Under the pieces are notes generated by a model. It worked only from the letters and a program-made list of their open reading frames with translations, did no database searches and was not told the DNA's origin. From Nemertoderma westbladi (lineage: Eukaryota; Animalia; Xenacoelomorpha): a stretch of 48,170 bases of DNA. The position numbers and the translations under genes are program-made. Positions 12,619 through 48,170 of the stretch are shown piece by piece; position 1 is the first letter of the stretch, and every line of letters begins with the position of its first letter. The DNA lies in contig JAUCBJ010002933.1 of NCBI GenBank assembly GCA_032718475.1, positions 1-48,170 on the forward strand, written 5' to 3'.

Positions 12619-12726
12619 AAGCAAACTTAAGTCAAAGAGAAAAGAAAATGAAGCCCTCACCATCTGGCTATAAAGCAAACTTAAGTCAAAGAGAAAAGAA
12701 AATGAAGCCCTCACCATCTGGCTATA
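12619..12726. repeat. 54-bp tandem duplication at the end of a BEL fragment
   Basis: AAGCAAACTTAAGTCAAAGAGAAAAGAAAATGAAGCCCTCACCATCTGGCTATA occurs twice. Confidence 0.9.
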
Positions 12727-12729
12727 TAT

Positions 12730-14373: not shown

Positions 14374-14375
14374 CC

Positions 14376-15020: not shown

Positions 15021-15101
15021 GTATTGCTACTATAGTAATAGTACTATAGTAATTGCCATATTTAATTTATTTTATTTATTTTATTTAATTGCCTACTTTA
15101 A

Positions 15102-16345: not shown

Positions 16346-16359
16346 CAAGTAATGCATAT

Positions 16360-21949: not shown

Positions 21950-22371
21950 ATGTATGCTCATTATGTAATCCCGCCCTGGAAATAAATATTTTATTATCTA
22001 TTATTTACAAAAACCTATACTTATTCTTTATAATATTTAATATAAACGTATACAATAGTGTAAATAAAATTTTGATACCTACATAAACATAAATTATCAC
22101 ATATTATATAGAAACACTTACATCATGAACACCATTGTGTTGTAACTTAGTCGAGGTTTTTTGGACGGCTGTTCTCCTTTTCTGTCCCTTTTCTTTTTCA
22201 CTCCGTTAGATACATGCAGTATCACAGCTTCCATGAAGGTGTGAGTCGAAGTCCCTCCCCTGGCCACTACTGCTTTAAGTTCAGTTGGAAGATTATTCAT
22301 TATATTATAAGGAGATTAAAGATTAAATTAAATGAGATTAAGTAAATATTTCTTAGTATTGCTAATTCTTA

Positions 22372-22638
22372 GTATAAATACAGAAAGATCTACTGTATAA
22401 ATACAGAAAGATCTATTGTATAAATACAGAAAGATCTACTGTATAAATACAGAAAGATCTACTGTATAAATACAGAAAGATCTATTGTATAAATACAGAA
22501 AGATCTACTGTATAAATACAGAAAGATCTATTGTATAAATACAGAAAGATCTACTGTATAAATACAGAAAGATCTATTGTATAAATACAGAAAGATCTAC
22601 TGTATAAATACAGAAAGATCTATTGTATAAATACAGAA
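22372..22638. repeat. 23-bp tandem array, about 11.5 units
   Basis: GTATAAATACAGAAAGATCTA(C/T)T repeated, with the C/T variants mostly alternating. Confidence 0.95.
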
Positions 22639-22673
22639 TGATAGGCATCATATTGCCCTGAATTGATTACACC

Positions 22674-23627
22674 ACGCCGATATATTTATATGTAACTTTA
22701 ATATGTAATGCGATCGACACTGCCAGATATTTTCCAGGTATTTATTCCTTCTACTAATAGATATTAGTTTTCTTAATGATTTTATGAAATTCTTGTAATC
22801 TTACTCTTATTTTTTTTCCTGTATTTTATATTTATGTCATATATATCTTATATGTTTCTTATATGTATCTTATATGTATCTTATGTATCTTGTATCTTAT
22901 ATGAATCTTATATGTATCTTATATATCTTGTATCTTATATGTATCTTTTAAATATCTTATCTATCTTATAATATTCTCAATCTTAAAATTTAATACAAAT
23001 TAATCTCACTATAATATACTATTTAGTAATGATTATGTCGGCTGCTCTGAACTTATAGACCTATCTCTTATAAGAACTATAATACTTATATTTACTATAT
23101 CCTTATATTACTATATCGTTATATTATTACTATAGCTCAGTATTATATTTTATACGCCTACTCTATTTATAATATATAACATTTGTTTACTATCTGTTTA
23201 AAATATTTTTAAATGTGGTTGATTTTCAGAATTACTATGTAAGCTTAAGTTATAATTATGTAATAGTAATTACGAAAACATAATTATTGTGTCATTTATG
23301 CCTGCTAATATAGTACAATGTCATATAATTTTGCACCACTTTCACTACTAGTAATGGTTTTATAACTATGTGGGGCGAGCCACGAAGTGAGCGAAGCCTT
23401 AGAATATGGGTGCCATTGGCGATTTGTTGTCAAACTTGGCACGTTATGTAGTGCGTCAAAAGCTTAGAAAGAGTCTGAAGTTAGGTCAAAAAGAAACTAA
23501 CACAACACGGCACTACATGAGGACAATTATTGTGTTGAAGACTTTTTACTAACGGCAGACAACTCGTTAATGTTTCCCACATGCTAAAGGCTTTGCTCAC
23601 TTCGTGCTCCGCAAAGGCCTCATGAAC
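22674..23627. repeat. ~950-bp AT-rich direct repeat, copy 2
   Basis: Nearly identical to 20999-21949, offset 1675 bp. Confidence 0.95.
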
Positions 23628-26700: not shown

Positions 26701-27191
26701 GTGCTCCTAGTGCTGGAGTGCTGGTTTCTCGAGGACCCTGATCTCCTTCGATGTACTGCTGTCCTGGTGCTGGAGGTTTGCACTGATTCTGCGTCTGTTC
26801 TTTCAGCTCTCTTGTAGTACTGTTCTTCATAGCCTCTCACAAGGCTGAGGGTCCTCCGGTGTTGTTTGCGGAACCCATCTAGATGTACAACGTGTTCTTC
26901 TAACCTGGGGTAGTTTTCCTGATCGGTGGAGGGAATGAGCTCTTGGTACGCCTGTATCATTCTTTCATATCGCTGTAAGATGTTTCGGATACCCAGAAGC
27001 TGAGTTTGTATCTCGTTGAGGGGGTTTTTGACTCCCTTGAGTTGTTTCTCTATCCGTTGATACGCTCGAGTTACTCCGCCCTTGAGAGCCCCTAGTCGAC
27101 GGGTCATGTTCTTGACGTTTGGTACCTCGTCGGCTTCCGAATCTGTGTGGTGGTCCATCTCATCGGTATCGGATACGTTGTTCGCCATCAT
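23715..27191 (-). pseudogene. Element A: BEL/Pao gag-protease, truncated before RT
   Basis: ORFs 26481-27191 and 23715-26198 share a frame, separated by TGA stops at 26481 and 26241. FEGDPIDY gag motif, three Cys/His boxes (CLYCGEKHKVEFC, CFRCLGTGHYVREC, CAVCNDLRHHTLLH), protease FLDNGS, charged coiled-coil repeats. Confidence 0.9.
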
Positions 27192-27359
27192 TCCAACGCC
27201 TCGTCGATAGCTAGATATGCGATGTCGTAGAATAGTTCCTCGTAGGTATTGTACTCAGCCTGGACCACCCAAACGGTAATCCTGAATCGTCCGACGTTCG
27301 TTCCTTGTACTTCCACCTCAACATGCCAGATTCCTGGCTCAACTTGGATGATATCAATG

Positions 27360-28545
27360 TGTAAAAGCTTTTGTGGGATAACTGATTCGTTTGCCTTGCT
27401 AACCAGTTCCCCCCAGGCGCTGGAATACTCTAAAAAGGGATCTATAACTCGAATAGCGCAAGCTACCGGCTGATTGGCTGATTTGCTGTGCGAAGGGATC
27501 TGGGCTACGTTTGATTGTCCAACCAGCTTGGGAAAGTTGCCCCACAGCCCTGCTGTCTGTATCTGCCAATAGGATTTGAGTTGATTTTGATTTCGACCTA
27601 TCACAGATCTACTGAACTGAATTTTCCTATCTGTATGCTCTTTCTCTGTGTTGGGTGGAAGCCTTTGTAAATAAGGTTATTCTTATCAGTTTTCAGTGTT
27701 GTTGGTCTTTCTGTCCTGAGCCAGGAGAGAACGGCTTGGAAATATTTTGTGCTTTTCTGTTTTTAGCTCAACACTAGTAGGCTTAATTATAAGGACATAT
27801 ATCCGTTATCATAACTAAACAATCAATCCAATCCATACAAAACTGATGTTTGGTCTTTCTTGCATACTTTTATATTGTTATACTGCTATTTACTGTCAGT
27901 TCTTCATAATATGGTTGATGAATTATTATATTTGGAATAACGCTAAATAACCCCGAAACCCAATATTCTTGATATACCGAAGGTAAGAGAGAAAGGTTAC
28001 ATATAACGATTGTGACTTATGTTAAAGTGGTTTGAAGTGAATCTAATGTTATTTGATAGACCCTACATGAGTCAGTCCGTGTTCCTTTTATATATAACTA
28101 AAATCAGTGAAGATCGGCAGATCAGTGTGCAGTATTGTGCAGCATTGTGTATGAGTGAGCCTGATAACGAAGCATTTCCTAAAGAATGCGCCATATATGT
28201 GAATTATAACTAAGCCATATCGTTGTGAGTAGTTTAAGTCATAACTCTGTTTATATGGGTAAAGCGCCATGTCCTAAAGGAACTGTTAATATTCCCCGAA
28301 GGTGAATAATATTGTCAGAGATTATATAATACTGTCAGTCGAATAATACATTAGGCTTACATAGCAATAAAATTAAGCCGTCGAACCCAATCTCCCGGGT
28401 ATATCCAGCGGGTGAATGATCGCGCACAGATTGGTTTCGACTAGTGTAGTGAATTAAATACTTGTCATAGGCTAAAGGTGATTTATTATCTAGAAGACAT
28501 CCTAATTTGGCGGGTTAAACTGCCAAAGGTCTGAAAGCGCGAACA
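27360..28545 (+). repeat. 5' LTR of element B (1186 bp, TG...CA)
   Basis: TGTAAAAGC...GCGCGAACA; diverged homologue of 41423-40191. Confidence 0.85.
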
Positions 28546-28556
28546 ATAACGGATAT
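28546..28556 (+). promoter_or_regulatory. Non-tRNA primer-binding site of B, complementary to 27799-27809
   Basis: ATAACGGATAT abuts the LTR-terminal CA; its exact reverse complement ATATCCGTTAT lies at 27799-27809. Confidence 0.75.
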
Positions 28557-28909
28557 CGCTTCTTTATTGCAGTAAGCAATAAAGTTGAAAGTACCGGTCA
28601 ACCGGTAAACCTGAACGGTACTTCAGTAGGTCAGTAGGCCCAACCGCCAGAACCGGTACTGCCGTAGGTCCGTAGGTCCAACTGCCAGAACCGGTACTTC
28701 TGTAGGTCCGTAGGCCCAACTGTCCTAACCGGTACTTCCGTATAAGTACATTAGTATTATTCGATTTGATTGTTGCATACCGGTAGGCTGTTTAAGAGAT
28801 TAGGGACTGTACACCCCTTGTTTCTTTTGGAGCTTACTTATTTCTGTCAGTTTTATTTTATTTGTAGGCCAGTATTGAACAGAAGGCGTGTAAGCCTGAT
28901 CAGATTGTA

Positions 28910-29485
28910 CAGACAATTGGTAGGCTGAGCTGTTGTCTGATTGCTGTTAAGTCTGAACGGATTGCAGTGTGAGTGGATCACCTGTCCGATAAAGAACGGT
29001 TAGGAAGTAGGGGCAGCCAATGCTGTAAGGTAAACCCCCAACTAAAGAATAAGTCGTACTACTGGGTTAGAACGCATACTACCTAATCATTTCGGAGTCT
29101 GCATGTCCTGTAGTTTATTTAGGCTTGAGAGTAGTCTGCCATCGTTTAGTCTGTACTTTGTTTGTGTAAGTCTGTACGGGTAGCGTATAATATTTATTTA
29201 GATAATTTGTAGGCTGGATAGTTGTCTGGCTGTTATTAGGTCTGAACGGATTGTAGTGTGTGTAGAGCCCTTGTCCGATAAAGAACGGTTAGGAAGTAGG
29301 GGCAGCCAATGCTGTAAGGTAAACCCCCAATTAAAGAATAAGTCGTACTACTGGGTTAGAACGCATACTACCTAATCATTTCGGAGTCTGCATATACCGT
29401 AGTTTGTTTAGGCTTGATAGTAGTCTGTCGGTATTTGGTCTGCATTTTGTTTGAGTATTTGTACGCGTAGCGTAATATTTATTAT
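28910..29485. repeat. ~290-bp tandem duplication in the B leader (counterpart in C at ~39290-39810)
   Basis: Block GTCCGATAAAGAACGGTTAGGAAGTAGGGGCAGCC...GGAGTCTGCAT occurs twice. Confidence 0.85.
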
Positions 29486-30799
29486 TCAGAGTTTATGCGA
29501 TTATTCGCAACATTCATTCCCCAAGTTTGTTCCTACAATAATTGTGTTTGTTATACATACCGCTATAGTTAAATTAACCCCGGTACTACACGGGCTGCTT
29601 GGCGTAGGTAAAGACTGGTGATTTTGTGCACCGGTCACTCCAGCAGATGCCGTGGTTCTTTTAGCTGTTCAAGTATATTTAACTACTGATTATCTGTTGT
29701 ACAAGTACTCGTACCTAATTTAGGGTTTAGTGTACAGTGCTTTCCGAGAGTAATTAGTGTAGGCATTATATTTGTGTTGTAAAGTGGTTGATAGGCACAT
29801 TCGATTAGCTCTATTAACTTCTAGGTAGGAACACTCCGTGATACATAACGTAGTACCTCTAGCGATACGGCTATAGGTCGTCAGGTGGTGGTATTTCCTA
29901 TCTGGACAACGCAGTGTATTTACTACTACTTATTATTTTCAAATACCGTAGTACCCTGTCCGTTGTAATAACCAGTTTCCTAACCCTTTGTTAGGCTGGT
30001 TTGTAGACTTCTTGTAAAATTACCCTAAAAATTCGTATTTTGTGTTTTTGTAAATTTTTGTGTTTATTTAGAGATTGTAATCTCACCCGAATTGTACGTA
30101 ATTTGTTGTATTAAGTAACTTAGGTAAATTAGAATCATTTGTTTTAGTGTCCTATAAGTTACACTTCACTGAAAGCGCACCGCTTTGTGTAGTGATTGTT
30201 CCCCAGAAATATTAAAATTTATTTCAAACATTGACTAAACCCATTAAAACGGGTATATATATATTATAAATCAAATCTAACGATTTATAAATAGTAGGCC
30301 TACCATACAACCATTAGGTCTCAATATCAGTTGGATTACTGCTCAAAAAACGGTAATAAAGTAAGTAAAGTAACCAAGTAACCCTAAAATTCAGAAATTC
30401 AATTATTTAAAATAATTGATATACCGGTATTTACGATAGGCCTATTATCTTTATTTCTATAAATTTAGGCTGAAATTATACCGGTACTTTATAATTAATT
30501 CTAGTCCAGAATTATAATTATATACTACAAAACTGTAAGCTGTATACCGGTATTCCCGATAGACCTATTATATATTTATATATATTTGTGCTAAAATTAT
30601 ACCGGTATTCTGTGATAAACCTAGTCTGTAATAATAGTTATATATACTATAAGCATACCGGTATTCTAATATATTATATATATCACGCTACACTGAGTAG
30701 CAGTACCGGTAATTAATTACTAGGCTAGCAGTTAATACTGAGTTACTAGACTTGCTCAGACTGTAATACAGCAATAGACATTCAACTGTACACATAAAC

Positions 30800-33036
30800 A
30801 TGTCTGATACTAAGCAGAACCTGTCAGACAGTTTATTAGATGTAACTATCTGCGACTCAGATAGAGGCGTAGAACCGTCTAGTCGTAAGTTCAGTTCACC
30901 TCCCACTGTGAGGAAAGTCATCCCTCCAGTAGTAATAAAAGAACCTAGGCTGGTCCAACATCGTAGGTCTATCATAGGCACTCGAGCTCAGGTCAAGCGG
31001 GACCAAGAAGCAGCGGGACAGCAACAACCCGCGAGCCAAGAACTTACTTCTCAACGGCCCAGCAGCTCCAGTAGTGAGGATACTGTAGAACTGACACCAG
31101 AACGCGGAGCAAAGATGATGGATGCGGTTTATTCGGATCCCCTTCTCATCCTTCCTGCAGCCGTACTCACTAGGTTATTGATCGCTGTGGAAGAACACCA
31201 GATCGATTGGGCGAGAAGCCAGCGTTCAACTAGAGATAGTTATGCTGGATACACAAGGGAAGAACTGAAGTCCATGGTCGAGTCGCAATGGAACTTCCCC
31301 GGACCCGGACTCCCGTTTGATTTATCAGAAGCTGCCTGGGAAGACATACACCGGATGGGAGTAGCCAAAGAAACCATAGATCCCGCTGTGTGGAAGAGGT
31401 CCGCAGCCGGATACGCACAGGGATTCTTCAGCTCTATGGAGCGAGTAAAAGGACAACTGTTTCAACAACCACAAGGACCTCAAGAGCAGGGACAACTGCT
31501 TTATCAAGTTAGAGAAAGAATTCTACGAATCAGGCTAATATTATCGGCCTTTGAGGAGGCTTCTAAACGAAGACAAGACACGTCGTTGCAAGTTGCCGTA
31601 AAGACTTGGTTTCAAAGGGTGAGTCTCCAGGTTCAAGGAACAGCTCAGTGGAAAGCTCAGCTGGAGGAGCGCTCAACCCATGGAGAATCAACAGACGCTA
31701 CTTTTTCCCAAGTGGAAAGTGAAGCGACGGCAGAGAAACCGCATAAGAGGGATGCCATTGACATCTATCTGTCAGACTATCAATGTTTTTTAGGTGATGA
31801 CGAGTTGAGGAGAAGGTTAGATGGACTTAGCCCTAATAGCGAAGGAACTCAGCGTGTGTTGGATGCCATCGATGTGGAAATGAGGGCTGCGAATCAGGCT
31901 AAATTTGATGAACAACTCCGCCTGACACGAGTCCAAGAAGAACAAGTAAAGAAAAAACGTATAGAAGACAGAAAGAAAGCAGCAGTGGTAGCTGCGGAAG
32001 CAAAAAGAAAAGCGGTAGCGGCAGAGGCAGCGGCAGAGGCAAAAGCGGCCGAAGCTGAAAGAAAAGTGGCAGCGGCAGCGGCAGCGGCAGAAGCAAAAGC
32101 GGCCGAAGCTGAAAGAAAGGCGGCCGAGGCTGAAAGAAAGGCCGCAGAGGCAGCGGCAGCGGCAGAAGCAAAGGCGGCCGAAGCTGAAAGAAAGGCGGCC
32201 GAGGCTGAAAGAAAGGCCGCAGAGACAGTGGCAGATGCCGAACGGAGAGCGACTGAAGAAACCACCCAATTAGAATTGGAAAACATTCAGGAGAATCAAG
32301 ACTGCATAAATAAACAGTTAACAGCTAGTAATATGCAGATGATGAATCGATCTACTCCCAAAAGACAGGGATATACATCATCTGAGGAAGGCGATACCAC
32401 CGATACTGAAGGCAAAGGAAATAGATCTCGTTTAAGCAGACGTAAAAGAACATTCCACCGTCAGAAATTGCCTGATTTGCCTCCAGCTGTTAGAAGGCAA
32501 CTAAATAACACCAACTTAGGTAGTACAGAGCCCACAGACCAAACAATTAAAATAGAAAGACTCCCTACGATAGTAGATGAGCCTGAAATAATTAGGCCTG
32601 TTCTTGAAATCACCCCTTCGGTGATAGACACACCTGTGCTCCCTGAGACTACCTCTAAATTCCCTCTGCATAGCACTAAGCTACCTGTGCCCCGTAGAAC
32701 TGCCCAGGAGACAGTTCAGGTCCTGGACCCCGAGCGAAATATTCATGATTTGTCGCCCGTTGTCCCTCGTCCGCCCGCTACAACGTTGGCGACTCCCGCT
32801 TCGGCGGTCGAATGGGTGGACGAGAGACGGCGGGGGATGGATCTCCTGCTCGGGCAGATGCAGGAGACTGTTCAGCAATTCAAGGGCACAGTAAGGGAAA
32901 GTAGGCTAGAGTTGCAAGAAGTGCAGCAAAGTATCGCGCTAGAACGTGATAAATTAGTAAATACCCAAAAGGGTATACCACCACCCTCTGTAACAATGTG
33001 TCAACCTGTTAGGTCTGAAGTATCGCATGCGCAAGG
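30800..33036 (+). pseudogene. Element B gag, N-terminal part, cut by the insertion of C
   Basis: 753-aa ORF homologous to the N-terminus of the C ORF, with AEAERKAA repeats; homology breaks at HAQG and resumes at 41429. Confidence 0.88.
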
Positions 33037-33660
33037 TGTTCGCGCTTTTGAAGACCTTTAGCAGTTTAACCTGCCAAATTTTATATGTCTTTTAGTTAAT
33101 TAACACACCTTTAGCATACGACAATATTTTATGCTAATAAACAAAACATTAGCCAAAGCCAGCCCATGCGCGATCATTCACCCGATGGATCTACACCCGG
33201 GAGGCTGAATTCGGATGCTTAGATTTTATTATTGCAGTGTAAGGTTGCAGTGTAAACCTATTGTATTATTCGATAGATCACTAATATGTAATTTCTGACA
33301 GATATTATTAACTTTCGGGAAATATTAACAGTTCCTTTAGGACGTGGCGCTCTATCTATTTAAACAGAGCTAGGACTTATACTAAACGCAACGATAAGGC
33401 TTATGATTAAAGTATAAGTCGCATTCTTTAGGAAATGCTTTGTTACCAGTCACATCACACTCACAATCATGCACACTATTCTGCAGACAGTCAGTATATT
33501 TGATCACACATAAAGAGAGCAGTAATTGACTCACGTAGTGTCTACTAAATAACATTAGATTCAATACACACCACATTGATATAATATAAATAAAAATAAA
33601 TTACATAATAATACATACATAAATAGAAAATAAAAACAAATATAAAATGATATAGTCACA
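33037..33660 (-). repeat. 3' LTR of C (short form, 624 bp)
   Basis: 33037-33584 matches 40191-40738 (one mismatch seen). On the minus strand it begins TGTGAC directly after a PPT-like GGAGTGGGCG (33670-33661). Confidence 0.85.
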
Positions 33661-33678: not shown

Positions 33679-36600
33679 TCACGTTATGGAGTCCCTAGAT
33701 ATTTGTCGGATTAGGGAAGTAGTCGTAGGAAGAGTCGCTTGCGTCCTTCTATAGTTTCCGGACAGTTTTCTGTCTCTTTCCAGTAAACATAAACGACTAG
33801 CTGGGCGATTGAGTTGTTGTGTTACTTTCTCCGCTCCCTTGGCCTGTCTAATTTCTGCCGTGGTAGGATGAGGAGGCCATTCTTCTTCTTCTTTACTTAA
33901 GGAGTCGGATCCACCTAACCAGCCTGGAGTATCTATCAGTTCTTGAGGAGTTGCTCCTCTGGAAGCGATGTCGGCTGGATTAATCGTCCCAAGGCAATGT
34001 CTCCATTGATCTACATTGGAGTTAATATCGTCATTATCTGAGGAGTATGGTGTTACCTCAGTGGGTTCGTCCACTTCACTGCTCCCCTCTTCCCAATCCT
34101 TTACTTGAAGTAGCCGGTCTTGTGGCAATCTTTCTTCAAGAGTTCTGCGGGAAGGGCCAGTAAAGTACCAACCTACTCTAGTTCTTACCGCATAGGTTTG
34201 CAGTGGCTGCGGTTGAGCAGGCCGTTTCTCCAATGGCTCGAGCGCCTCATGCGCGTTTTGGCCGATGAGTATTTGCACTCCAGGATAATCTGTCTGGAAT
34301 CGAGGTATCTTAAGATGTTGGATGCTCTCATCCTCGTCCCAATTATAAAGGTCTGCTTGGGTAGTAGCGAAGTTCCTTATAGCCACCATTTTTACTGACC
34401 TTATACTTTGTGCTCCTAATTTATCCTGGGGGGTGGACAACGCACCTACATAGTAATCTGCCGTTATGGTAGATTTCCAAACCTGCATAATTCCGGACAT
34501 ATTCAACTTAGTTTGGAATTTGGGTTGTCCAGCAAAGATATCTTCGGCCAGTTCTTGATCGATGAATGTTCCTGTGCTGCCGGAGTCAAGGAGTGCGTTC
34601 ACTATGTAACTTTTGTTGGGACCGTGAACTCTTACCTGCATTACAGGAAATTCTCTGATTCCTACATTGGAAGTTGGAGTTTTCCAAGATGGTGGTTTGT
34701 CAAAAGTAGTTGGGGGAAACTCATTGGTGGTGTCTTTTTCGTACGTAAGTGCTCGATACACTGCGGTATTTATTAGATAACAGGATTCGTTGGCATCGGA
34801 GAATTCGTCTGTATAGAATCCTTCCCACTCAGAACCTTGGTCAGTGTCGTTCACATCACTGAATTGGACATGTAATTCGGGCTCACTTACCTGACTCGGG
34901 TTGTCTCGTTCGAACTCACTGTGTAACAAAATGTGATGTTTCGCGCCACACTTTGCACACTTTGCGTCGGAGTAACAGGTTCGCCGTTGGTGTCCTGATC
35001 TGAGGCAATTATAGCATAACCGCTTATTCCACAGGACTGTACGTCTGTCTACAGGGGATTTCTTTAGAAATTCAGCACACGCACTCAAACGGTGAGGCCC
35101 GTCGCACAGCGCACATTTTGGTTTGATGTTACTCACCTTAACTTGGTTAACGTTATGCACTCTCGTTCTTTCTTCGGGCTTTCTTCCGTGAATTCTCTTA
35201 GGAGACGTAGGAGGAGTTGTTGTTACCTGTTCTCTCCTGTCACTGGTTCGAGACTTGTATTTACTTACGTCTTTATAGGTCTTGTTGTCATAGTAAGATT
35301 TTGCTGTGTCTTTCCCGCTGTCCTCTTCTTGAGAAGCTTGGCTTTCGCCGTCGTCAGTATAACACACTGGTATTATCCTTCTCCTAGAATCGGGTTTCTC
35401 ACTTACCTTATTTTCCGATGTTTTCTCTCTGGCCTGCCTTATGAGTTGTAATTTTACTTCACTATCTAAGAAAGACATGAGATCAGCCATGGTAGGACTT
35501 CGTCGTTGTTGTTCATTCATGTACAACACTTTCTTGTCCCAGCGTGTACATACTCCACCCTTTGGTAAAGTAGAGACTACGGCTCCAATAACCATGGAAC
35601 TCTGGTATTCGTGCGACTTACCTAACCAGTCCAGTTGTCTACAGATCTCTTGAATTTCATCGGAAAACTCTATAATCCCACTACTAAGGAAGTGTCGGGG
35701 GGCTACTAATTTTGCATACAAATACTTAGCTATGTTATCCTTGTTACCATACCTGATGTTTAGTGTATCCCAAACTTGTCTTAATCCATCTGGATGTCCA
35801 ATAAACTTTAACGCCATTAACTTGGGAGGTCCTTCCAAGCACTTGATGAGGAATCTAAGTTTCTCTCCGTTAGATAGTACAGAGTTCTGTATGCTATCTT
35901 TGTAATATTCGTTGAAAGGTAACCATTTCATCTCATCTCCATTGAATTTGACGATCTCTCCAACTTTGACCGCTTGGCGGGCTTCTGTTCTAGCCATCTG
36001 ACGCGTAAAGCTTTCTTGGACCATCGTGTTATTTAATGTCGAATTATCGGTATATAAATTTCTCGGATCATTATTAGATCTATAGGGAATATCATTAATA
36101 ACAGGTCTATAATCACCCTTAATAGGGTTTGTTATAGGAGTTTCAACTTCACTAGCAGTATAGATGCGTGTAGGCTCCACACCTTGCGCATGTAATACTT
36201 CAGACCTAACAGGTTGACACAATGTTACAGGGGGTATTGGTATGCCCTTTTGTATATTGACTAATTTATCGCGTTCTAGTGCGATACTTTGCTGCACTTC
36301 TTGCAACTCTGCTCTACCTTCCCTCACTGTTCCCTTAAGTTGGTGGACAGTCTCCTGCATCTGTCCCAGCAGGAGATTCATCCCCCGCCGTCCCTCTTCC
36401 ACCCACTCAACCGCCGAAGCGGGAGTCGCCAACATAGTAGCGGGCTGACGCGGGACGACGGGAGACAAATTATTGATTTCTCTCTCTGCTATCTGGACAG
36501 GGGTATTTGCATGGACTGTTCCACCGGGTACAGGCAGTGTAGTGCTATGTAAAGGGAATTTAGAGTTAAGCTCTGGAAGTGTAGGGGTCTCTAGCACAGA

Positions 36601-37932
36601 AGTGACTTTGGGAACTACAAGCCTAATTATTTCAGGTTCATCGACTATAGTAGGGAGTCTTTTGACCTGGATAAATTGTTCTATGGGTTCTGCACTACCT
36701 AAATCTGTGCTAGTTAGCTGTCTTTTAACAGCGGGGGGCAAATCAGGCAGTTTATGACGGTGAGATGTTTTTCTACGCCTGCTTAGACGAGATCTATTTC
36801 CTCCGCCTTCAGGATCGGTGGTCTTGCCTTCCTCCGATGATGTGTATCCTTGGCGCTTGGGAGTAGATCGACTCATCATCTGCATTTGATTAGCAGTAAA
36901 CTGTTTATTTATACTGTCTTGTGTCTCTTGCAGATTTTCCAACTCCAGTTGGGTAGTCTGCTCAGAGGCTCTCCGTTCTGCTTCGGCCACTGCCCTTTCC
37001 GCCTTTGCTTCTGCCGCCGCTGCCTTTCCTTTTGCTTCTGCTTCTGCCGCTGCTGCCCTTCCTTTTGCTTCTGCTTCTGCCGCTGCTGCCCTTGCTGCTA
37101 TTCTTTCTGCTTCTACTTCTGCCATAGCCGCCGCCTTTGCTGCTTTTCTTTCTGCTTCTGCATCTGCCATAGCCGCCGCCTTTTGTTCCTCTATCCTTCT
37201 TTTCTTTATTTGTTCTTCTCGGACTCTAATGAGGCGGAGTTTTTCATCACATTCAGCTTGGTTTGCAGCTAACATTTCGGCATCGATTGCGTCCAACACA
37301 AGCTTGGTTCCTTCACTATTAGGGGAAAGTCCAGACAGCCGTCTCCTCAACTCTTCGTCTCCTAGGAATCGCTGATAGTCGGACAAATAAATGTCGATAG
37401 CGTCTCTAGTTCGCGGCTTCTCTGCTGATGTTAATTCGCTTTCCACTTCGCTTTCCACCTCGCTTTCCACTTCGCTTTCCACCTCACTTTTCACTTCGCT
37501 TTCCACCTCACTTTCCACTTGAGAAGAAGTGGCGTCGGTTGATTCCCCACAGGCTGGCCGCCCATCATAAACCGTATCCGCCATCTTCGCTCCGCGTTCT
37601 GGCGTCCGCTCAACAGTATCCGAACTACTGGAGCTATCGGGCCGCTGAGAACCAGGTTCTTGGCTAGGAGGTTGCTGCTGTTTTATAGCTTCTTCTTGAT
37701 CCCGCTTGACTTGGGCCCGAGTGCCTATGGCAGACCAACGGCGCTTCACTAACTTCGCAAATTGCGAAATCTTTTCTACCAACCTAGGTTCTGTCACAAC
37801 CACTGCAGGGGTTGCCCTTCTTACAGTATGAGGGGTTTCAGACCTCGGTCTGGGATTCTCTACACTTTGATCTGAGAAACAGGCTGTTGTTTCTAGGAGA
37901 CTATCTGACAGAGTTTGCCTTGTGTCAGCCAT
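33679..37932 (-). CDS. Intact 1417-aa BEL/Pao Gag-protease with only remnants of RNase H and integrase
   Basis: FNGDEMKW gag motif, three Cys/His boxes, LLDSGS protease, then a jump to QWRHC..NPADIASRG and to RPASRLCLLE; no YxDD and no integrase core. Confidence 0.88.
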   Translation of the reverse strand: MADTRQTLSDSLLETTACFSDQSVENPRPRSETPHTVRRATPAVVVTEPRLVEKISQFAKLVKRRWSAIGTRAQVKRDQEEAIKQQQPPSQEPGSQRPDSSSSSDTVERTPERGAKMADTVYDGRPACGESTDATSSQVESEVESEVKSEVESEVESEVESEVESELTSAEKPRTRDAIDIYLSDYQRFLGDEELRRRLSGLSPNSEGTKLVLDAIDAEMLAANQAECDEKLRLIRVREEQIKKRRIEEQKAAAMADAEAERKAAKAAAMAEVEAERIAARAAAAEAEAKGRAAAAEAEAKGKAAAAEAKAERAVAEAERRASEQTTQLELENLQETQDSINKQFTANQMQMMSRSTPKRQGYTSSEEGKTTDPEGGGNRSRLSRRRKTSHRHKLPDLPPAVKRQLTSTDLGSAEPIEQFIQVKRLPTIVDEPEIIRLVVPKVTSVLETPTLPELNSKFPLHSTTLPVPGGTVHANTPVQIAEREINNLSPVVPRQPATMLATPASAVEWVEEGRRGMNLLLGQMQETVHQLKGTVREGRAELQEVQQSIALERDKLVNIQKGIPIPPVTLCQPVRSEVLHAQGVEPTRIYTASEVETPITNPIKGDYRPVINDIPYRSNNDPRNLYTDNSTLNNTMVQESFTRQMARTEARQAVKVGEIVKFNGDEMKWLPFNEYYKDSIQNSVLSNGEKLRFLIKCLEGPPKLMALKFIGHPDGLRQVWDTLNIRYGNKDNIAKYLYAKLVAPRHFLSSGIIEFSDEIQEICRQLDWLGKSHEYQSSMVIGAVVSTLPKGGVCTRWDKKVLYMNEQQRRSPTMADLMSFLDSEVKLQLIRQAREKTSENKVSEKPDSRRRIIPVCYTDDGESQASQEEDSGKDTAKSYYDNKTYKDVSKYKSRTSDRREQVTTTPPTSPKRIHGRKPEERTRVHNVNQVKVSNIKPKCALCDGPHRLSACAEFLKKSPVDRRTVLWNKRLCYNCLRSGHQRRTCYSDAKCAKCGAKHHILLHSEFERDNPSQVSEPELHVQFSDVNDTDQGSEWEGFYTDEFSDANESCYLINTAVYRALTYEKDTTNEFPPTTFDKPPSWKTPTSNVGIREFPVMQVRVHGPNKSYIVNALLDSGSTGTFIDQELAEDIFAGQPKFQTKLNMSGIMQVWKSTITADYYVGALSTPQDKLGAQSIRSVKMVAIRNFATTQADLYNWDEDESIQHLKIPRFQTDYPGVQILIGQNAHEALEPLEKRPAQPQPLQTYAVRTRVGWYFTGPSRRTLEERLPQDRLLQVKDWEEGSSEVDEPTEVTPYSSDNDDINSNVDQWRHCLGTINPADIASRGATPQELIDTPGWLGGSDSLSKEEEEWPPHPTTAEIRQAKGAEKVTQQLNRPASRLCLLERDRKLSGNYRRTQATLPTTTSLIRQISRDSIT

Positions 37933-40178
37933 GTTTGATTGTACAGTCGAATGCCTACTGCTATATTACAGTTAAAGCAAGTCTAGTAATTCAGTATCAC
38001 TGTTAGCCTAATAATTAATTACCGATGCTGCTACTCAGTGTAGCGTGATATATATATAATATATTAGAATACCGATATGCTTATAATATATATATAAGTA
38101 TTATTACAGACTAGATTTGTCACAGAGTACCGGTATATAATTTTAGCACAAATATATATAAATATATAATAGGCCTATCGTGAATACCGGTATACAGCCT
38201 ACACTTATAGTATATAAGTATAATTCTGGACTATAATTAATTACAGAGTACCGGTATGATTTCAGCCTAAATTTATCGAATAAATATAATAAGCCTATAG
38301 TGAGTACCGGTATGTCAATTATTTTAGAATAATTGAATCTCTGAATATTTTAGGGCTACTTGGTTACTTTAACTTACTTTGTTACTGTTATTTAAGCAGT
38401 AGTCCAACTGATAGTGAGACCTAGTTTTTGTATGACAGGCCTACTATTTATAAATCGTTTGATTTGATTTATAATATTTATATACCCGTTTAAATGGGTT
38501 TTTTGTCAATATTTGAAATAAATGTTATTATTTCTGGGGGTCACTACACAGAAGCTGTGCGCTCTCAGTGAAGTGCTATTTATTTGACACTAAAACTGAT
38601 AATTCTAATTTACCTAAGTTACTTAATACTACAAATTACTTACGATATGGGTGAGATTAATTCTCTAATTAAACACAACAAAATATTACGTACGAAATTT
38701 TTAGGGTAATTTTACAGGAAGTCTACAAACCAGTCCAACAAAGGGTTAGATTTCTGGTTATTACAAAGGACAGGGTACTACGGTATTTAAATAATAAGTA
38801 GTAGTAAATATATTGTACTGTCCAGATAGGAAAATACCACCGCCTGACGACCTATAACCGTATCGCTATAGGTACTACGTTATGTATCACGGATTGTTCC
38901 TACCCAGAAGCTAATAGAGCTAACGAATGTGCCTATCAACCACTTTACAACACAAATATACTGCCTACACTAATTACTTCGGATAGCACTGTACACTAAA
39001 CCCTAAATTAGGTACAAGTACCGGTATAACAAATAATCAGTAGTTAAATATACTTGAACAGTTAAAAGAACCACGGCATCTGCTGGAGTGACCGAAGCAC
39101 AAAATCTCCAGTCTTTACCTACGCCGAGCAGCCCTGATGTAGTACCGGGGTTAGTTTAACTATAACGGTATGTATAACAAGCACAATTACTGTAGGAATA
39201 AACTTGGGGACCTGAATGTTGCGAATAATCGCATAAACTCTGAATAATAAATATTACGCTACCCGTACAGAATACTCAAACAAATACAAACCAACTGGCA
39301 GACTACTATCAAGCCTAAACAAACTACAGTATGTGCAGATTCTGAAACTGTTAGTTAGTATGCGTTCTAACACGGTAGTACGACTTATTCTTTAAGAGGG
39401 GATTGACCTTCAGCATATGGCTGCCCCAACTTACTAACGGCACTTGATCAGACCAACTCTACACACGCAGCAATCTCTTCAGACCTAATAATAGCCAGAC
39501 AACAATCCAGCCTACAAAATATCTGAGTAATAACTATTACGGTACCTGAACAGACCACACAAACAAACACAGGCTAAAACACTGGCAGACTACGATCAAG
39601 CCTAAATAAACTACAGTATATGCAGATTCTGAAACTGTTAGTTAGTATGCGTTCTAACACGGTAGTACGACTTATTCTTTAAGAGGGGATTGACCTTCAG
39701 CATATGGCTGCCCCAACTTACTAACTGCACTTTATCAGACCAACTCTACACACACCGTAATCTCTCCAAACTCAACAACAGTCAGACAGCAGCTCAGCCT
39801 ACAATTATCTGAACAATCTGAGCAGGGTCACACGCCTTCTGCTCAATATTAGCCTACTAGTAAATAAAACCGACAGAAATAAGTAAACTATACAAAAGAA
39901 TGAGGGGTGATCAATCCCTATTCCCCTGGCAGCCTACAATATACAATAGATCACAATCGAAATAATACTAAATGTACTTGTACAGCAGTACCGGTACCGG
40001 TGATGACAGTTAGGCCTACTGACCTACAGAAGCACCGGTTCAGTTTTACCGGTCACTACGGTATTTTGCAACCTTATTGCTTACTGCAATAAGATCATAA
40101 CTGTTACTGTTCGACAGAACAGTATTAAACTGTATTTAATGCCTACACTTGCAACCTTATTGCCTACTGCAATAAGAT

Positions 40179-40190
40179 TATAACTGTTAC
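40179..40190 (-). promoter_or_regulatory. Non-tRNA primer-binding site of C, complementary to 40931-40942
   Basis: Minus-strand GTAACAGTTATA abuts the LTR end; its exact complement lies at 40942-40931 inside the LTR. Confidence 0.75.
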
Positions 40191-41423
40191 TGTTCGCGCT
40201 TTTGAAGACCTTTAGCAGTTTAACCTGCCAAATTTTATATGTCTTTTAGTTAATTAACACACCTTTAGCATACGACAATATTTTATGCTAATAAACAAAA
40301 CATTAGCCGAAGCCAGCCCATGCGCGATCATTCACCCGATGGATCTACACCCGGGAGGCTGAATTCGGATGCTTAGATTTTATTATTGCAGTGTAAGGTT
40401 GCAGTGTAAACCTATTGTATTATTCGATAGATCACTAATATGTAATTTCTGACAGATATTATTAACTTTCGGGAAATATTAACAGTTCCTTTAGGACGTG
40501 GCGCTCTATCTATTTAAACAGAGCTAGGACTTATACTAAACGCAACGATAAGGCTTATGATTAAAGTATAAGTCGCATTCTTTAGGAAATGCTTTGTTAC
40601 CAGTCACATCACACTCACAATCATGCACACTATTCTGCAGACAGTCAGTATATTTGATCACACATAAAGAGAGCAGTAATTGACTCACGTAGTGTCTACT
40701 AAATAACATTAGATTCAATACACACCACATTGATATAAATCGCAATTGTTATATATAGCCGGTCTCTCTAACCTGTAGTGTATCAAGAAAATTGGGAATT
40801 TGGGTGATTTATCCGTATTATCCAAAGAGCAATATTTCCATCAACAAATAGGTACAATTAATAACTGACGGTAAATAGCAGTACAAACAATATGATTAGT
40901 GCAGTTAAATTAAGTGAGGTAACACCGCCGGTAACAGTTATACTTTCTATAATCTAAGCAGTTTACTAGAGTTCTTCCCAAAAAGCCGGTGTTTCTGGCT
41001 TAGACAGCAATAACAACAAAGTATCAAGTAAGAGCAGTAAGACTGAACACTCTCCTTATGATCGGCTGAAAAGCTACACGTCGACAGGAAAAATCGCTCT
41101 GATTGGCTCAAGCCAAACAAAGAACCATGCATCCAATGGCTGTTTCCATGTCAGCAACCAGCTGTTAGATGTCGTAATATGAATCATCACGGCTAAGCTG
41201 TGAAAGGTAGTTGGTGCATTACAGGTTTTTTGCCTTACCATGTCCGCCAAAACACGTATATAGCAGAATGACTTTTATGTCCGTTAAAACACCTGTAACG
41301 GTACCTTGCGGGCGAGGGGAATATATATACAGTTAGAGAACCTTTTTAGAGTATTCCAGCGCCTGGGGGGAAACTGGATTGCGAAGCAAAAGGGGCCAGT
41401 TATATCCCACAGAAGCTTTTACA
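40191..41423 (-). repeat. 5' LTR of C (long form, 1233 bp)
   Basis: Minus strand TGTAAAAGC...GCGCGAACA, bounded by the TSD and homologous to the B LTR. Confidence 0.88.
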
Positions 41424-41428
41424 CAAGG

Positions 41429-43508
41429 TGTGGAGCCTACACGCATCTATACTGCTAGCGAAGTAGAAACTCCTATAGTGAACCCTATTAAGGGTAATTA
41501 TAGACCTGTTGATAATGATATTCCATATAGAACTGATCATAATCCGAGAAATTTATATACCGATAACTCGATATTAAATAACACGATGGCCCAAGAAAGT
41601 TTTACGCGTCAAATGGCTAGAACCGAAGCCCGGCAAGCGGTGAAGGTGGGAGAGATCGTCAAGTTCAATGGAGATGAGATGAAATGGTTACCTTTTAATG
41701 AATATTACAAAGATAACATACAGAACTCTGTACTATCTAATGGAGAGAAACTTAGATTCCTCATCGAGTGCTTGGAAGGATCTCCCAAGTTAATGGCGTT
41801 AAAGTTTATTGGACATCCAGACGGATTAAGACAAGTTTGGGATACACTAAACATCAGGTATGGTAATAGGAATAACATCGCTGGGTATTTGTATGCAAAG
41901 TTGGTAGCGCCCCGAAAGTTTATTAGCAGCGGAATTATCGAGTTTTCCGATGAGATTCAGGAGATCTGTAGACAATTAGATTGGCTAGGTAAGTCTCAGG
42001 AGTATCAGAATGCTATGGTTATTAGAGCAGTGGCTTCTACTTTACCGAAGGGTGGGGTAGGTACACGCTGGGATAAGAAAGTGTTATATATGATGGAACA
42101 ACAACGACGAGACCCTACCATGGCTGATCTCATGTCATTCCTAGATGGAGAAGTGAAATTACAGCTCCTGAAACTGTCCAGAGAGAAGACACCGGAAAAC
42201 AAGGTAAGTGAAAAACCCGTCTCTAGGAGAAAGGTAACACCAGTGTGTTATACAGACGACGGCGAAAGCCAGACTTCTCAAGGAGAAGATAGCGGGAAAG
42301 ACACTGATAGATCTTATTATGTCAATAAAATGCCTAAAGATCAGGTAAGTAAATTCAAGTCTCGAGCAAATGACAGGAGAGAACAGGTAAGAAAAACTCC
42401 TCCCACGTCTCCCAAGAGAATTCCGGTGAGAAAGCCCGAAGAAAAGGCAAGTGTACACAATGTGACTCAGATTAAGGTGAGTAACATCAAACCAAAATGT
42501 GCGCTATGTGATGGGACCCATCGCTTGAATATGTGTGATGAATTTCTAAAGAAATCATTAACTGAGAGACGTGAAGTCATGTGGGACAAGCGGTTGTGTT
42601 ATAATTGCCTCAGACAAGGACATCAACGGCGAACCTGTTACTCAGACATAAGGTGTGCAAAGTGCGGTGCGAAACATCATATCTTGTTGCACGCTGAATT
42701 CGAGCGAAATAGTCCGAGTCAGGTAAGTGATTCCGAACTACATGTCCAATTCAGTGATGTGAACGACACTGATCAATCTGAGATGGAAGGATTCTATACG
42801 GATGAGTTCTCCGACGAAAACGAATCCTGTTACATGATAAATACCACAGTGTATTGAGCACTCACATATGAAAAGGATACAGACAGCGACTTCACTCTAA
42901 CTACTTCTGAACGACAACCATCTTGGAAAGAGCCATCTTCCAATGTAGGGATCCGAGAGTTTCCTGTGGTGCAAGTAAGGGTTCACGGACCTAAGAGGAG
43001 TTATGTAGTGAACGCCCTCCTTGACTCCGGTAGTACAGGAACATTCATCGACAAAGAGCTAGCCGAAGATATATTTGCTGGACAACTCAAGTTCCAAACT
43101 AAGCTCAACATGTCCGGCATTATGCAAGTTTGGAAATCTACAATAACAGCGGATTATTATGTAGGAGCGTTGTCCACCCCTCAGGACGAACTAGGAGAAC
43201 ATAGCATAAGGTCAGTGAAAATGGTGGCTATAAAGAACTTCGCTACTACTCAAGCAGACCTTTATAATTGGGACGAGGATGAGAGCATCCAACATCTTAA
43301 CATACCTCGATTCCAGACTGATTATCCAGGAGTGCAAATACTCATCGGCCAAAACGTGCATGAGGCGCTAGAGACATTAGAGAAACGGCCTGCTCAACCG
43401 CAGCCACTACAGACCTATGCGGTAAGAACTAGAGTAGGTTGGTACTTTACTGGCCCTTCCCGTAGAACCCTCAGAGAAAGACTACCACCAGAGAGCGTTT
43501 GCCAGGTA
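41429..43508 (+). pseudogene. Element B gag (continued) and protease
   Basis: ORFs 41379-42857 and 42966-43532 share a frame with one TGA (42855-57, Arg in C); Cys/His boxes and LLDSGS. Confidence 0.9.
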
Positions 43509-44779
43509 CCCAAGGAGGTGAGGTCTCTATAGGGGTGCCTGCAACAGGCGGCGGCGGACTCGCGAGGGTCTGGGGGCACGTTAAATCGACGCTATAGTGC
43601 AAGGGAGTTACTGAAGGCCCTCGTGTCTTGCGAACCATGAATCAACATGGTGCCGTGGTACCGTCTAGTCGGCCTGTTGCCGTACTGCCAGTCCTGTACA
43701 CAGTAGGGGTGGTGGCTTAGTCTGATCTGTGGTTTATGTGGTTTATGTGGTAGGTCTATGTGTGGTATGTATGAGTTGACCAGACTCTTTACTGTCTCCA
43801 ATCGGTTGCCAAAACGTGTCTTTTCCCAGGGTAGCACTATTGGAATGGAGGTGTTGCATCGGAATGGACAGGTTCCTGATGATTCTGTTGGTACTACTAT
43901 TGGAATGGAGGTGGCACCCGGAATATCGGCTGCAAGGAGGGGTTGGTGTTGTAGTGTGGTCCGAGTGAATGATACTCTGGAATCTGTGGTTTGTGTGGGT
44001 ACGTGGTATACGTGAGTGTATGTATGGCCACTGCGAGTGAGTATGGGAACCCTTACCGGTTGGTTCAGTCGCCGCTGGTTATTAGTAGGACCATATTTTA
44101 CTGCGCCCCAGCATACTTTGTGCACACAAAGTTATTTTACCCTGTCGGTAAAATAAAGTACTCTCGACTTTTTATTAGTCGATACAATTTTGTCCCCTCT
44201 GATTTTGTCACCGATTTTGTCTTCCCCGATTATGTCCTCTGTGTGTGTGTGGTATGCGTCAGATTTTGTGTTTAACGTAGTGTACTTGATTTCGTGAGCA
44301 TCTATTGAGTACACGTGTACAGTGACTGGTAAGTGGTTACTTGTTCCTAGCTTTCGAGCTAGTCAGTATTGTTTGCGGAACCGACTTCCCCTCAATACTG
44401 CCGGCGAGGCGGGTGAAAACGTGTCAATATTCCATGCTGGGTAGCGCAAGCCCACATGGGACAAGACCGTCGGTTTGGCTCAAGGGCGACCTTGATGCTC
44501 GATCGCTATCGACTGGTCCACCCACCGGTTGACTCTCTGAGTTGGCTCAATGTACAGTCAGGCCACAGCAAGTTGACAGTAGCCGACCATCTGGCTACAC
44601 CGACGAGTTGTGCCGGTGTGATCGGAGGATTGAAAAGTGAACCCGGGAAGCATCGGGCTACCCTCCGGCCCGGTCTGATAAAAACATCAGTCGGACTGGC
44701 CCCAAGGGTGGTGGGACAGCGTCCGCCTCATGGGTGCGCCTCGGAGTCATCGGAGAGGAGCCCAGAAGGACGCAAGCAT
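43509..44779. mobile_element. Insert D: unclassified 1.27-kb hairpin-rich insertion in B, no TSD
   Basis: Absent from C; removing it gives CAG GTA AGT GAA TGG (QVSEW), colinear with QVKDW in C. Confidence 0.75.
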
Positions 44780-47700
44780 AGTGAATGGGAAGATGATACT
44801 AGTGAGGGAGACGATTTAACTGAGGTAACTCCATACTCCTCAGATAACGACGACATTCACCAGCTTTTTGATGAGGAGAATACCATCGATCTCCTTAAGG
44901 AAAACGAGGCTTGGCAAAACCAAGTGAACTTATGTCAACTTCTTTATCCATCTGAACGAGAAGCTTATAACGACGAGTTAAATGACGTCATTGAGCGTCA
45001 TACTGCCAAGACTCGAGATGAACATGCCGTACGATTCTTTACGCAAGAGGCGGTAGAGCCCAATTCCTACGATAAAGCCTTGTCGGTGGAAGAGGAAAGG
45101 GCCAAGCAGATCCAAGAGACAACTACACGTTTCCTCAAAGATCAAGGTAGGTATGAAGTCGGTCTACCTTTCCGCAAGAAAGAACCGAAGTTCATCAATA
45201 ACAGACCCTTGGCGGAAAAAAGAATCGCGCAACTCCATCGACGCCTTACGGCTAATTCTTCAGCTAAAGCAATGTATCAAACACAGCTGGAGAAATTTAT
45301 TAGTAAGGGATACGCGGAGAGAGTACCGGAAGAAACACCTGTGACTGAAAGAACGTATTACTTAACTCACCATTACGTTCCTAAACCCGGTAAGCCACAT
45401 GAAGTGAGAGTAGTGTTTGATGGCTCCGCTCTTTACATGGGTCAATCCCTTAACTCTGAATTGTTACCCGGACCCAACTTACTTCAATCTTTGTTGGGAA
45501 TTCTTTTAAGATTGAGACAATATTCGATTGCTTTCGCCTCCGATATAGAAGGCATGTTCTTACAAGTCAAGGTGCTAGATAGGGATCGAGATAGTCTACG
45601 ATTTCTGTGGTGGCCCGAAGGAGACCTCAACCAGAAACCGGTGGAGTACTGGATGACCATCCAGGCCTTCGGGATAATCTCAAGCCCTTCCAACGCCTGT
45701 TCGGTAGTGCGTACCACTGCAGAGGACAACCGAGAGGCATTCTCTAAGGAAGTGATCGACAACATCAAGAGAGACATATATATGGACGACAATCTGAAGT
45801 CCCTTCCATCAGTTGAGGAAGCCATTGAGGTCGCTAAAGGAACGGTAGAGTGCTTAAAAAGAGGTGGGTTTCGATTAACGAAATTCACCAGCAACTCCCG
45901 TGAGTTTCTGGAGTCGATCCCTGCGGAAGATCGAGGGGCGAAAGATCTAGATTTGATCAAAGATGATCTGCCAGAAACCAAGACACTCGGCTTGAAATGG
46001 GACACAGAGCGAGATATCCTGTTTTTCCAGCTAAAACAGCGAGATAATCCAGTTCGAACCAAACGGATTTGCTTAAGTATACTGAGCACTTATTTCGATC
46101 CATTGGGATTTATTAGCCCAGTTATATTGATTGCTCGTAGTTTGGTACAACAAATGTGGCTTGAAAACCACTCATGGGACGATCCACTTAAGGGAGAATT
46201 ATTGAAGAAGTGGATGGAATGGGAAGATTCTCTGCCGGCTATCGAGGATTTTATAATTTCCCGTTCATATTTTGGTCATGTTCTCCCTACGTATTCCTAT
46301 CAACTCCATGTGTTTGGAGACGCCAGCGATATGGGAATAGGTATAGTAGCCTATCTAAGAGTGGAAACTCCGGATGGAATCAAAGTCGCCTTGGTTACTT
46401 CTAAGGCATTAATCAACAACAAGTTGAAAGTTCCTCGAGCGGAGTTAAAAGCGGCTCTATACGCTACAGCCATCGGCCGGAATGTAACAGAACAGATTGA
46501 CTATCCATTAGAGAAAACTGTCTATTGGACCGACGCTTTACTCGTGTTAGAGTATATAACCAATGAAGTCTGTCAGTTCAGCGTCTTCGTTACCAACAGG
46601 GTAGCCATCATACTTAGTCGCACGACGATGGACCAATGGAGACATTGCCCCGAAACGATTAATCCAGCAGACATCGCTTCCAGGGGAGCGACTCCAAAGG
46701 AATTGGTAAATACTCCCGAATGGTTAGGAGGACCTGACTTTCTCTACAGAGAAGAAGAAGAATGGCCTCCCCATCTCACCACAGCAGAGATCAGACAGGC
46801 CAAGGGAGCGGAGAAAGTTAAACCCAAAACTCGAGCGAGTAAATCGAAGTTGTTTAAACCTGCGGTTGATCTATCTGTATTATTTACTTCCGGAGAGGAT
46901 GCTTTGGATCAGAAACCCACCGCCACGGATAAAGAAGTCTTGGAAATCCGTGACAAGGATTGGAAATCTGGAATACCAGATATCTCACAAGGACTCTCAC
47001 CTCTCTTGCAGAGAGCGATACGTCACTACAGTTCCTGGAATCGGCTCTGTAAAGCTGTCACCTATTTAAAACGATGTTTTCATCATCGTTACTCCGGGAC
47101 AAAGACCCATAGTGATGATGCTCCATCAACATCTGCACGAGTCCATGTTGTTAAAGACCTTCCCCAATACAAGATATCCGACAGGTTTCTAAAGGAGAAG
47201 ATCAGTTACCAGGAACATGATGAAACCAACAAACAGATGCTGAGACTCCTACAATGTTATGAGGATTCCGATAAGTATTTCCTGTTGTTAAGAAATCCAC
47301 AGATGCGCTTAAGGGATCGCTTCTCTAGTACCATGATAGATGGGTTAATACGTGTTGGAGGTAGGCTGACCAACGCCCCATTATCCTTTGACACTAAGTT
47401 TCCCATCCTCATTAGAAATCTTGACATACAAATCAAGATGATTGTAGATGTTCATAGCAAACTGTACCATGCTGGTAGAGAACGAGTTCTGAGCGAAATT
47501 CGAACTCGCTACTATTTTTATAAACCCCGTAGGGCTCTGAACCAAGTTCTTAGGAACTGCATACCCTGTAGGAAAGCATTCAGTAGGCCTTTGACACAGC
47601 GAGAGGCAGAATTACCTAGGGAAAGAGTAAGCTTTTATGAACCACCCTTTACTAATACCGGTGTGGATTTATTTGGCCCTATTGAAGTATATCGTGCCCG

Positions 47701-48170
47701 GACTATAGTTAAGAGATGGTGTGTCATCTTCGTTTGTATGACTTGTAGAGCTATCCATCTCGATATGGTAAACGATCTATCCACCAACAGCTTTGTGTTG
47801 AGTTTACGACGACAGATTGCTCGTTTCGGAACCAGTAACACGATGAGATCAGATAAGGGAACGAACTTCATTGGCGCCAACAACGAAATTCAAGCTTACG
47901 TAAAGGACTGGAACAAAAGACAGGTGGACGATCAGCTAAAGATAACAGCGTCTAGCTGGACCTTCAACGCCGCCGACGCCCCTTGGTGGGGAGGAAGTTG
48001 GGAGAGATTGATTAGAAGCGTGAAAACTGCGTTCCACTTTATTGTACCTTGTCGCGCTTATCTCACCGACGAACTATTGCGGACGTTAATGGAGGAAATC
48101 GCCGCCTATCTCAACGAAAGACCGCTTATGCCAGTCTCTTCAAGTCCGGATTCCCTGGAAGCGCTAACTT
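44780..48170 (+). CDS. Element B pol (RT, RNase H, integrase); frame apparently open to the window end
   Basis: YEVGLPF, RVVFDGS, SDIEGMFLQV, YMDD, FDPLG, FGDAS, WTDA, NPADIASRG, H..LYHAG...CIPC, GVDLFGP, RSDKGTNF, GGSWERLI. The ORF track reports no terminated ORF in this frame, consistent with no stop. Confidence 0.9.

Follow-up and report, generated by a model that had tools for sequence, protein, structure and literature searches.

A BEL/Pao retrotransposon lineage that probably primes reverse transcription with its own RNA

What starts reverse transcription in a BEL/Pao retrotransposon that has no binding site for a host tRNA? The question is raised by two elements, designated here B and C, in a 48,170-nt stretch of the genome of Nemertoderma westbladi (contig JAUCBJ010002933.1, positions 1 to 48,170, referred to as the window). 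BEL/Pao elements (Belpaoviridae) are described as having an 18-nt primer-binding site (PBS) for a host tRNA, and their replication is called poorly understood (ICTV, PMC8742986). An earlier note on this DNA had pointed out that the nucleotides adjoining the 5' LTR of B and C are complementary to a partner site inside the same LTR. It had proposed that these elements prime with the first bases of their own transcript, in the manner of Tf1 of Schizosaccharomyces pombe.

B and C are BEL/Pao-type LTR retrotransposons, with C nested in B (Table 1). C is bounded by the CAAGG duplication inside the gag gene of B, and the TG...CA LTR ends and target-site duplication expected of a BEL/Pao element are present at both of its ends; a start of its LTR at 41331 was dropped, because the target-site duplication check failed there. 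For B, the 5' LTR alone lies in the window and the 3' LTR outside it. The LTRs of the two elements are 76% identical (849/1111 columns), and both end with GCGCGAACA directly before the PBS. The Pfam domains (DUF1759, aspartic protease, Peptidase_A17 comprising RT-RNase H, Integrase_H2C2) follow the BEL/Pao gene order, and PF05380 was found in all of the best 120 of 925 homologues (36-44% identity), among which the named hosts are mostly marine invertebrates and fish. From these marine hosts one may guess at a link to the Sailor lineage (Sinbad, Sparrow, Surcouf) or to the Suzu clade, as these groups are named in PMC6238403 and PMC8556966. Judged from sequence, B and C are filed as BEL/Pao by Pol ancestry alone and depart from the family in the PBS trait. 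C is defective, with the integrase and most of RT/RNase H gone; since its LTRs differ at one base, it was inserted recently.

Table 1. Features of elements B and C in the window
Feature	Position	Strand	Remarks
B 5' LTR, 1186 bp, TGT...ACA	27360..28545	+	end-to-end alignment with C LTR
B partner site, putative self-primer, unsplit	27799..27809	+	LTR position 440-450
B AATAAA, candidate poly(A) signal	28366..28371	+	motif scan; function putative
B predicted U5 structure running up to the PBS	28417..28545	+	folding and pair check
B PBS ATAACGGATAT, no TGG	28546..28556	+	adjoins LTR
9-bp hairpin just 3' of the PBS	28562..28584	+	C counterpart 40177-40155, minus strand
B gag, 5' part, broken by C	30767..33036	+	
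CAAGG target-site duplication, left copy	33032..33036	+	5 bp, flanks C
C 3' LTR, shortened to 548 bp, without partner site	33037..33584	-	1 difference from 5' LTR
C gag-protease ORF (DUF1759), then two short pol remnants	33679..37965	-	
Second copy of C PBS, in a 48-nt duplication	40097..40107	-	still 11 nt complementary to partner
C PBS GTAACAGTTATA, no TGG	40179..40190	-	adjoins LTR
C partner site, putative self-primer, unsplit	40931..40942	-	LTR position 482-493
C 5' LTR, 1233 bp, TGT...ACA	40191..41423	-	ends fixed by target-site duplication
CAAGG target-site duplication, right copy	41424..41428	+	5 bp, flanks C
B gag (DUF1759) and protease, 3' part	41424..43532	+	stop at 42855-57
B pol ORF (Peptidase_A17, Integrase_H2C2)	44417..48169	+	Pfam; continues past window edge

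The leaders between PBS and gag (28546-30766, plus strand, and 40190-37966, minus strand) are unusually long and contain 38-nt repeats and a ~288-nt tandem duplication; their 2.2 kb compare with about 20-300 nt in most relatives shown below. Between protease and RT, B has ~1.3 kb (43482-44772) without counterpart in C, which includes a 179-codon minus-strand frame with no Pfam match. The minus-strand region 23715-27359 contains a third BEL/Pao gag-protease (DUF1759, ~26% identical to that of C), which ends where the B LTR begins. B seems to have inserted into this third element, whose LTR and PBS lie outside the window. Broken BEL/Pao pol pieces of other families (Peptidase_A17) are present at 12667-15043 (minus strand; on a very long branch) and 16346-16810 (plus strand). 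The window further contains a 954-bp direct repeat (99.4%) around a 23-bp tandem array at 20999-23627, in which no TG...CA ends were seen, a DDE_1 transposase fragment (2289-3452, minus strand) and an aspartyl-protease fragment (5357-6575, plus strand).

The PBS of B is the exact reverse complement of its partner site over 11 nt, and that of C over 12 nt (minus strand, 40190-40179 against 40942-40931). The expected chance count of such a partner within the element's own LTR is 8.4e-4 for B and 9.9e-4 for C, and 4 of 2191 and 4 of 2195 leader positions, respectively, reach 11 nt if the PBS positions are counted in. The partners start 747 nt (B) and 752 nt (C) from the LTR end, at the same place in the LTR alignment. 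Positions 1, 6 and 8 differ between the two PBSs, and the partners differ at 11, 6 and 4, the mirror positions, so that 3/3 changes are compensated; the chance of three mirrored changes with eight unchanged positions at 24% divergence is roughly 6e-5. If PBS and LTR are exchanged between the elements, the match falls to 5 nt in either direction, and the predicted stability of the duplex to -2.7 and -5.1 kcal/mol as against -12 and -13 kcal/mol for the cognate pairs. TGG is absent from the first 40 nt past the LTR in both elements, ARAGORN found no tRNA in the window, and the best alternative partner that splicing could create reaches 6 nt in B and 5 nt in C. What the earlier note had read from the letters, i.e., the coordinates, the exact pairing, the homologous position of the partners, the missing TGG-type PBS and the compensation of all three differences, was thus found again on re-checking.

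In DNA runs of the host, the family is abundant. Within the PBS, variation among its copies was found at 28546 (41-56% of depth in runs X1-X3) and 28550 (54-56%). The copies align up to ~27810 and diverge sharply directly past the last base of the partner (27811-27876). Of the 26 listed pieces, 12 end at 27808, and the read depth over 27805-08 amounts to 45-59% of the value for 27797-800, which would be compatible with partner changes at 27809 and 27805 that mirror the PBS variants. The stretch ~27760-27810 is conserved among the host copies; at its start are a pyrimidine tract and AG (27767), which resemble a splice acceptor. No splice-type joint was seen in run X4, which is only guessed to be RNA.

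For a comparison with other elements, we aligned the RT-RNase H region of B with 40 of those 120 homologues and used the alignment as the query. This yielded 45 loci on animal contigs that stand in prokaryote bins, the best 80 among 558 metagenome loci, and a further 20 regions from five of the prokaryote bins. The 45 loci from the bins (L001-L045; several with both LTRs) stand in records filed as bacterial or archaeal genomes, and these bins likely contain animal host DNA. The fetched loci fall into two groups: distant BEL/Pao elements, whose site is of the TGG type, and a lineage nearer to B, in which the site varies and is not of that type. Note that the metagenome set was picked by likeness to B, and the grouping is therefore partly ascertained. 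Partners were sought with a spacer of 0-6 nt allowed between LTR and PBS and with GT-AG introns of 45-700 nt allowed within the partner.

In 13 loci of the lineage, the LTR end is fixed by two LTR copies (for L018 and L069, a near-identical family mate was also drawn on). A perfect partner of 10-12 nt was found in 12 of these 13 (9/10 families), ten of them matching solely across a GT-AG intron and two unsplit; the remaining locus, L002, reaches 8 nt, with one mismatch in 11. Under the same rules, none of 14 TGG-type controls exceeded 6 nt, and none of 198 cross-family pairings reached 10 nt (maximum 9). Among 59 loci with an inferred LTR end, 22 reach at least 11 nt (20 spliced, 2 unsplit); the others comprise one artefact at 11 nt or more, three loci at 10 nt and 33 below, and the matched null gave 7/260 at 11 nt or more, two of the seven within one family. 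A 25-nt match in L126 was not counted because it belongs to a long inverted repeat, nor were the 10-nt matches of L057 and L061, which lie inside the null range. Wider rules, applied to 31 re-examined loci, brought in L056, L004 and L052. Many non-matching loci contain little LTR sequence; six (L006, L080, L085, L114, L118, L119) have ~890 nt of upstream sequence and no convincing partner. An unanchored inverted-repeat scan proved too noisy, a pattern search of viral contigs gave 28 matches of which none was confirmed, and a search for a tRNA gene behind the TGG-type controls gave 17 matches, those that were placed lying at or beside elements already seen.

In a pooled set of 43 loci, 19 of them picked for having scored in the inferred-end test, 34 match over 10-15 nt. 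Among these 34 loci there are 27 different PBS 11-mers, which differ from one another at 6.4 of 11 letters on average, and every one finds its match in the LTR of its own element; the covariation that the earlier note had suggested looking for in a larger alignment is thus present. In L001 and L003, three PBS letter differences are mirrored across the splice junction. The pairing starts 0-4 nt from the LTR end in 33 of the 34 loci. Furthermore, the PBS begins with GT or AT in 31/34, B and C among them, and the partners end with AC or AT in 31/34, again including B and C. A site that lies near the LTR end, is not a tRNA site, varies freely and has its match in the element's own LTR is best understood as the site of a self-primer. 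On this comparative sequence evidence, we consider it likely that this BEL/Pao lineage, B and C included, primes reverse transcription with its own RNA. This part of the earlier interpretation stood; the Tf1-like start of transcription at the first base of the partner fared worse, as discussed below.

In a quick tree of 56 rows, the unsplit members are scattered among the spliced ones. B appears as a long-branch sister of the lineage (best identity 44%), its join having an SH-aLRT of 89 and no star. Its partner and that of C lie 736-740 nt from the LTR end, as compared with 44-216 nt in most relatives. With this long branch and this distant partner, the self-pairing of B could have arisen separately. 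Two loci inside the self-pairing lineage, L093 and L113, have a variant TGG-type site just upstream of gag (the LTR end is an inferred one), which either persists from the ancestor or marks a reversion to priming by tRNA.

An intron of 67-478 nt interrupts the partner in most relatives, with 3-10 partner bases before the junction and 4-8 past it. The donors are GTAAGT, GTAAGC, GTGAGT or GTAAGG in 26 of the 28 junctions, and the pyrimidine tracts at these 28 junctions are richer than at other AGs (0.71 vs 0.54). In addition, a comparison of L104 (6924-7206) with its sister L105 (7566-8083) reveals the exact loss of a 168-nt GT-AG LTR intron at the partner-forming junction. L104 may be RNA-derived or a DNA copy of an intron-less element, and either way the splice sites were used. 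Two candidate introns in B and C were discarded. The first, at B LTR positions 308-407, has no clear counterpart in C. The second would begin at a GT inside the partner and finish at an AG 30 nt short of the LTR end; it has a poor donor, B lacks the AG, the site is part of a conserved hairpin, and the intron would take in AATAAA.

We find it reasonably probable that the lineage exchanged tRNA priming for a primer assembled by the spliceosome. The spliced 5' copy alone would then pair and be cut, the unspliced 3' copy would protect R and pass the intron on, and B, C, L005, L115, L075 and L104 would be intron-less offshoots with a finished primer. In the mechanism that we propose, transcription would start somewhere upstream of the partner, not necessarily at it, and the 5' leader, after splicing in most relatives and as it stands in B and C, would pair with the PBS over 10-16 bp, so that the RNA folds back onto its own PBS and primes minus-strand synthesis. 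By analogy with Tf1, the element's RNase H is predicted to cut at the partner 3' end (27809 in B, 40931 in C), which would free a 3'-OH ending in AC or AU. Reverse transcriptase would copy U5 and R only back to this cut. Since copying at the 5' end would be limited to RNA downstream of the cut, an intron that lies upstream would be inherited via the 3' LTR copy. This split 3' copy could not be cut by mistake, and its splicing would give intron-less offspring such as L104; B and C perhaps descend from an element that lost the intron.

Structures around the PBS may help to present it. Helices in U5 are predicted in common for B and C, although from two sequences only; in B, 28417-25 is predicted to pair with 28537-45 (8/9), and a predicted inner hairpin (28506-27) has one-sided changes between B and C. 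The hairpin just past the PBS may contribute as well, but in whole-leader folding the PBS-partner duplex was in the best structure in only 2 of 10 trials. A U5-IR-like stem-loop next to the PBS reportedly occurs in the Tf1 literature, to judge from a paper title.

Where does the primer RNA begin? According to the earlier note, transcription starts near 27799 in B and 40942 in C, so that the first 11-12 capped bases would themselves be the primer. This sub-case of self-priming is in line with the unsplit partner, the absence of a spacer and a length of 11-12 nt as in Tf1. When folding was started at 27799, the B duplex was formed with a mean probability of 0.94, and the conserved block ~27760-27810, which includes the 40 nt ahead of the partner, might act as a promoter. 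However, folding from 40942 did not give the C duplex, the B duplex can be extended by 7 pairs into bases upstream of 27799, and the sole TATAA near the B partner sits 11 nt before it, which is too close. A TATA-like motif occurs 18-36 nt upstream of the partner in 3/29 elements (background 1/87), and since the donor in 28 relatives is preceded by only 3-10 partner bases, transcription beginning at the partner would need an implausibly short first exon. Such a short exon and the rarity of TATA-like motifs make a longer leader the more likely primer, and we regard a start at the partner itself as unlikely.

Another sub-case of self-priming is priming in trans, in which the genomic RNA would be primed by a short LTR transcript made separately, by either of the two LTRs or by a solo LTR, and spliced in the relatives. 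In many relatives AATAAA or ATTAAA follows soon past the partner, in L001 and L003 immediately; besides, the family is abundant in the host, and retention of the intron would be explained equally well. In B and C, however, AATAAA lies about 550-560 nt past the partner (LTR positions 1007 and 1040), and the fact that each PBS strictly matches the LTR of its own element is more simply explained in cis. Trans priming therefore appears improbable to us. A slightly smaller chance still we give to a pairing that is real but structural or regulatory (packaging, dimer formation, masking), with something else as primer, e.g., a protein or the transcript 3' end. Other conserved helices do flank the site, but the pairing starts close to the LTR end, the place at which a primer has to end, and is seen in loci that lack the TGG site; moreover, the partner precedes the candidate poly(A) signal and is thus not the RNA's 3' end. 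Finally, a host tRNA half or other host small RNA as primer, with an incidental LTR match, is hardly credible even though half-tRNA priming exists in plant Ty1/copia lineages (PMC6317226), since 27 PBS 11-mers are too varied for a host RNA, host copies vary at PBS positions 1 and 5, and changes are compensated in B/C and L001/L003. Self-priming by the elements' own RNA, probably from a longer leader, thus remains the reading that we prefer.

If so, the splicing-built primer would link the onset of reverse transcription with RNA processing by the host and account for the persistence of an intron inside an LTR, and tools that demand a tRNA site would miss or mis-score such elements. In titles and abstract openings of the open-access literature, neither self-priming nor a spliced primer was found for BEL/Pao; an earlier mention elsewhere may exist. 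A BEL/Pao element of Caenorhabditis elegans is said to encode its own tRNA-like primer, a report for which the open-access search gave no match. A term search in the accessible text of BEL/Pao surveys (PMC3118150, PMC554778, PMC6238403, PMC8556966, PMC11117352) returned no mention of PBS or tRNA, and the consulted sections of PMC8220671 and PMC3601003 add nothing on BEL/Pao priming.

Compared with Belpaoviridae as described, which have LTRs of 0.2-1.2 kb, gag and pol, and metazoan hosts (ICTV, PMC8742986), B and C agree in LTR size, in gag and pol and in their metazoan relatives. However, the 18-nt tRNA PBS is absent in B, C and the sister lineage, whereas more distant BEL/Pao loci have a TGG-type site. 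The Tf1/sushi and Tcn1 groups are described as self-priming and the TAR lineage is predicted to self-prime (PMC6317226, PMC4600332, PMC7175516, PMC5443660); in Tf1, RNase H cuts between bases 11 and 12 (PMC7175516). Like Tf1 and Tf2 (S. pombe), Tj1 (S. japonicus) and the Tf1/sushi and Tcn1 groups as these sources present them, B and C have, instead of a tRNA site, a PBS of ~11 nt beside the 5' LTR that is complementary to their own LTR RNA. They differ from these Ty3/gypsy elements in belonging to another superfamily (Peptidase_A17, DUF1759); they are not Tf1/sushi members and have no chromovirus Pol. Furthermore, the partner may lie inside the RNA and not at its 5' end, and in most relatives it spans an exon junction, a trait undescribed for Tf1-like elements in the text consulted. 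With the TAR lineage (Houba, Osr-1) they share a self-priming predicted from PBS-LTR complementarity alone, but TAR elements are plant Ty1/copia and no intron-split partner is described for them (consulted part of PMC6317226). Self-priming has so far been reported in Ty3/gypsy and predicted in Ty1/copia; a self-priming BEL/Pao lineage, if true, would complete the three LTR superfamilies and point to repeated invention.
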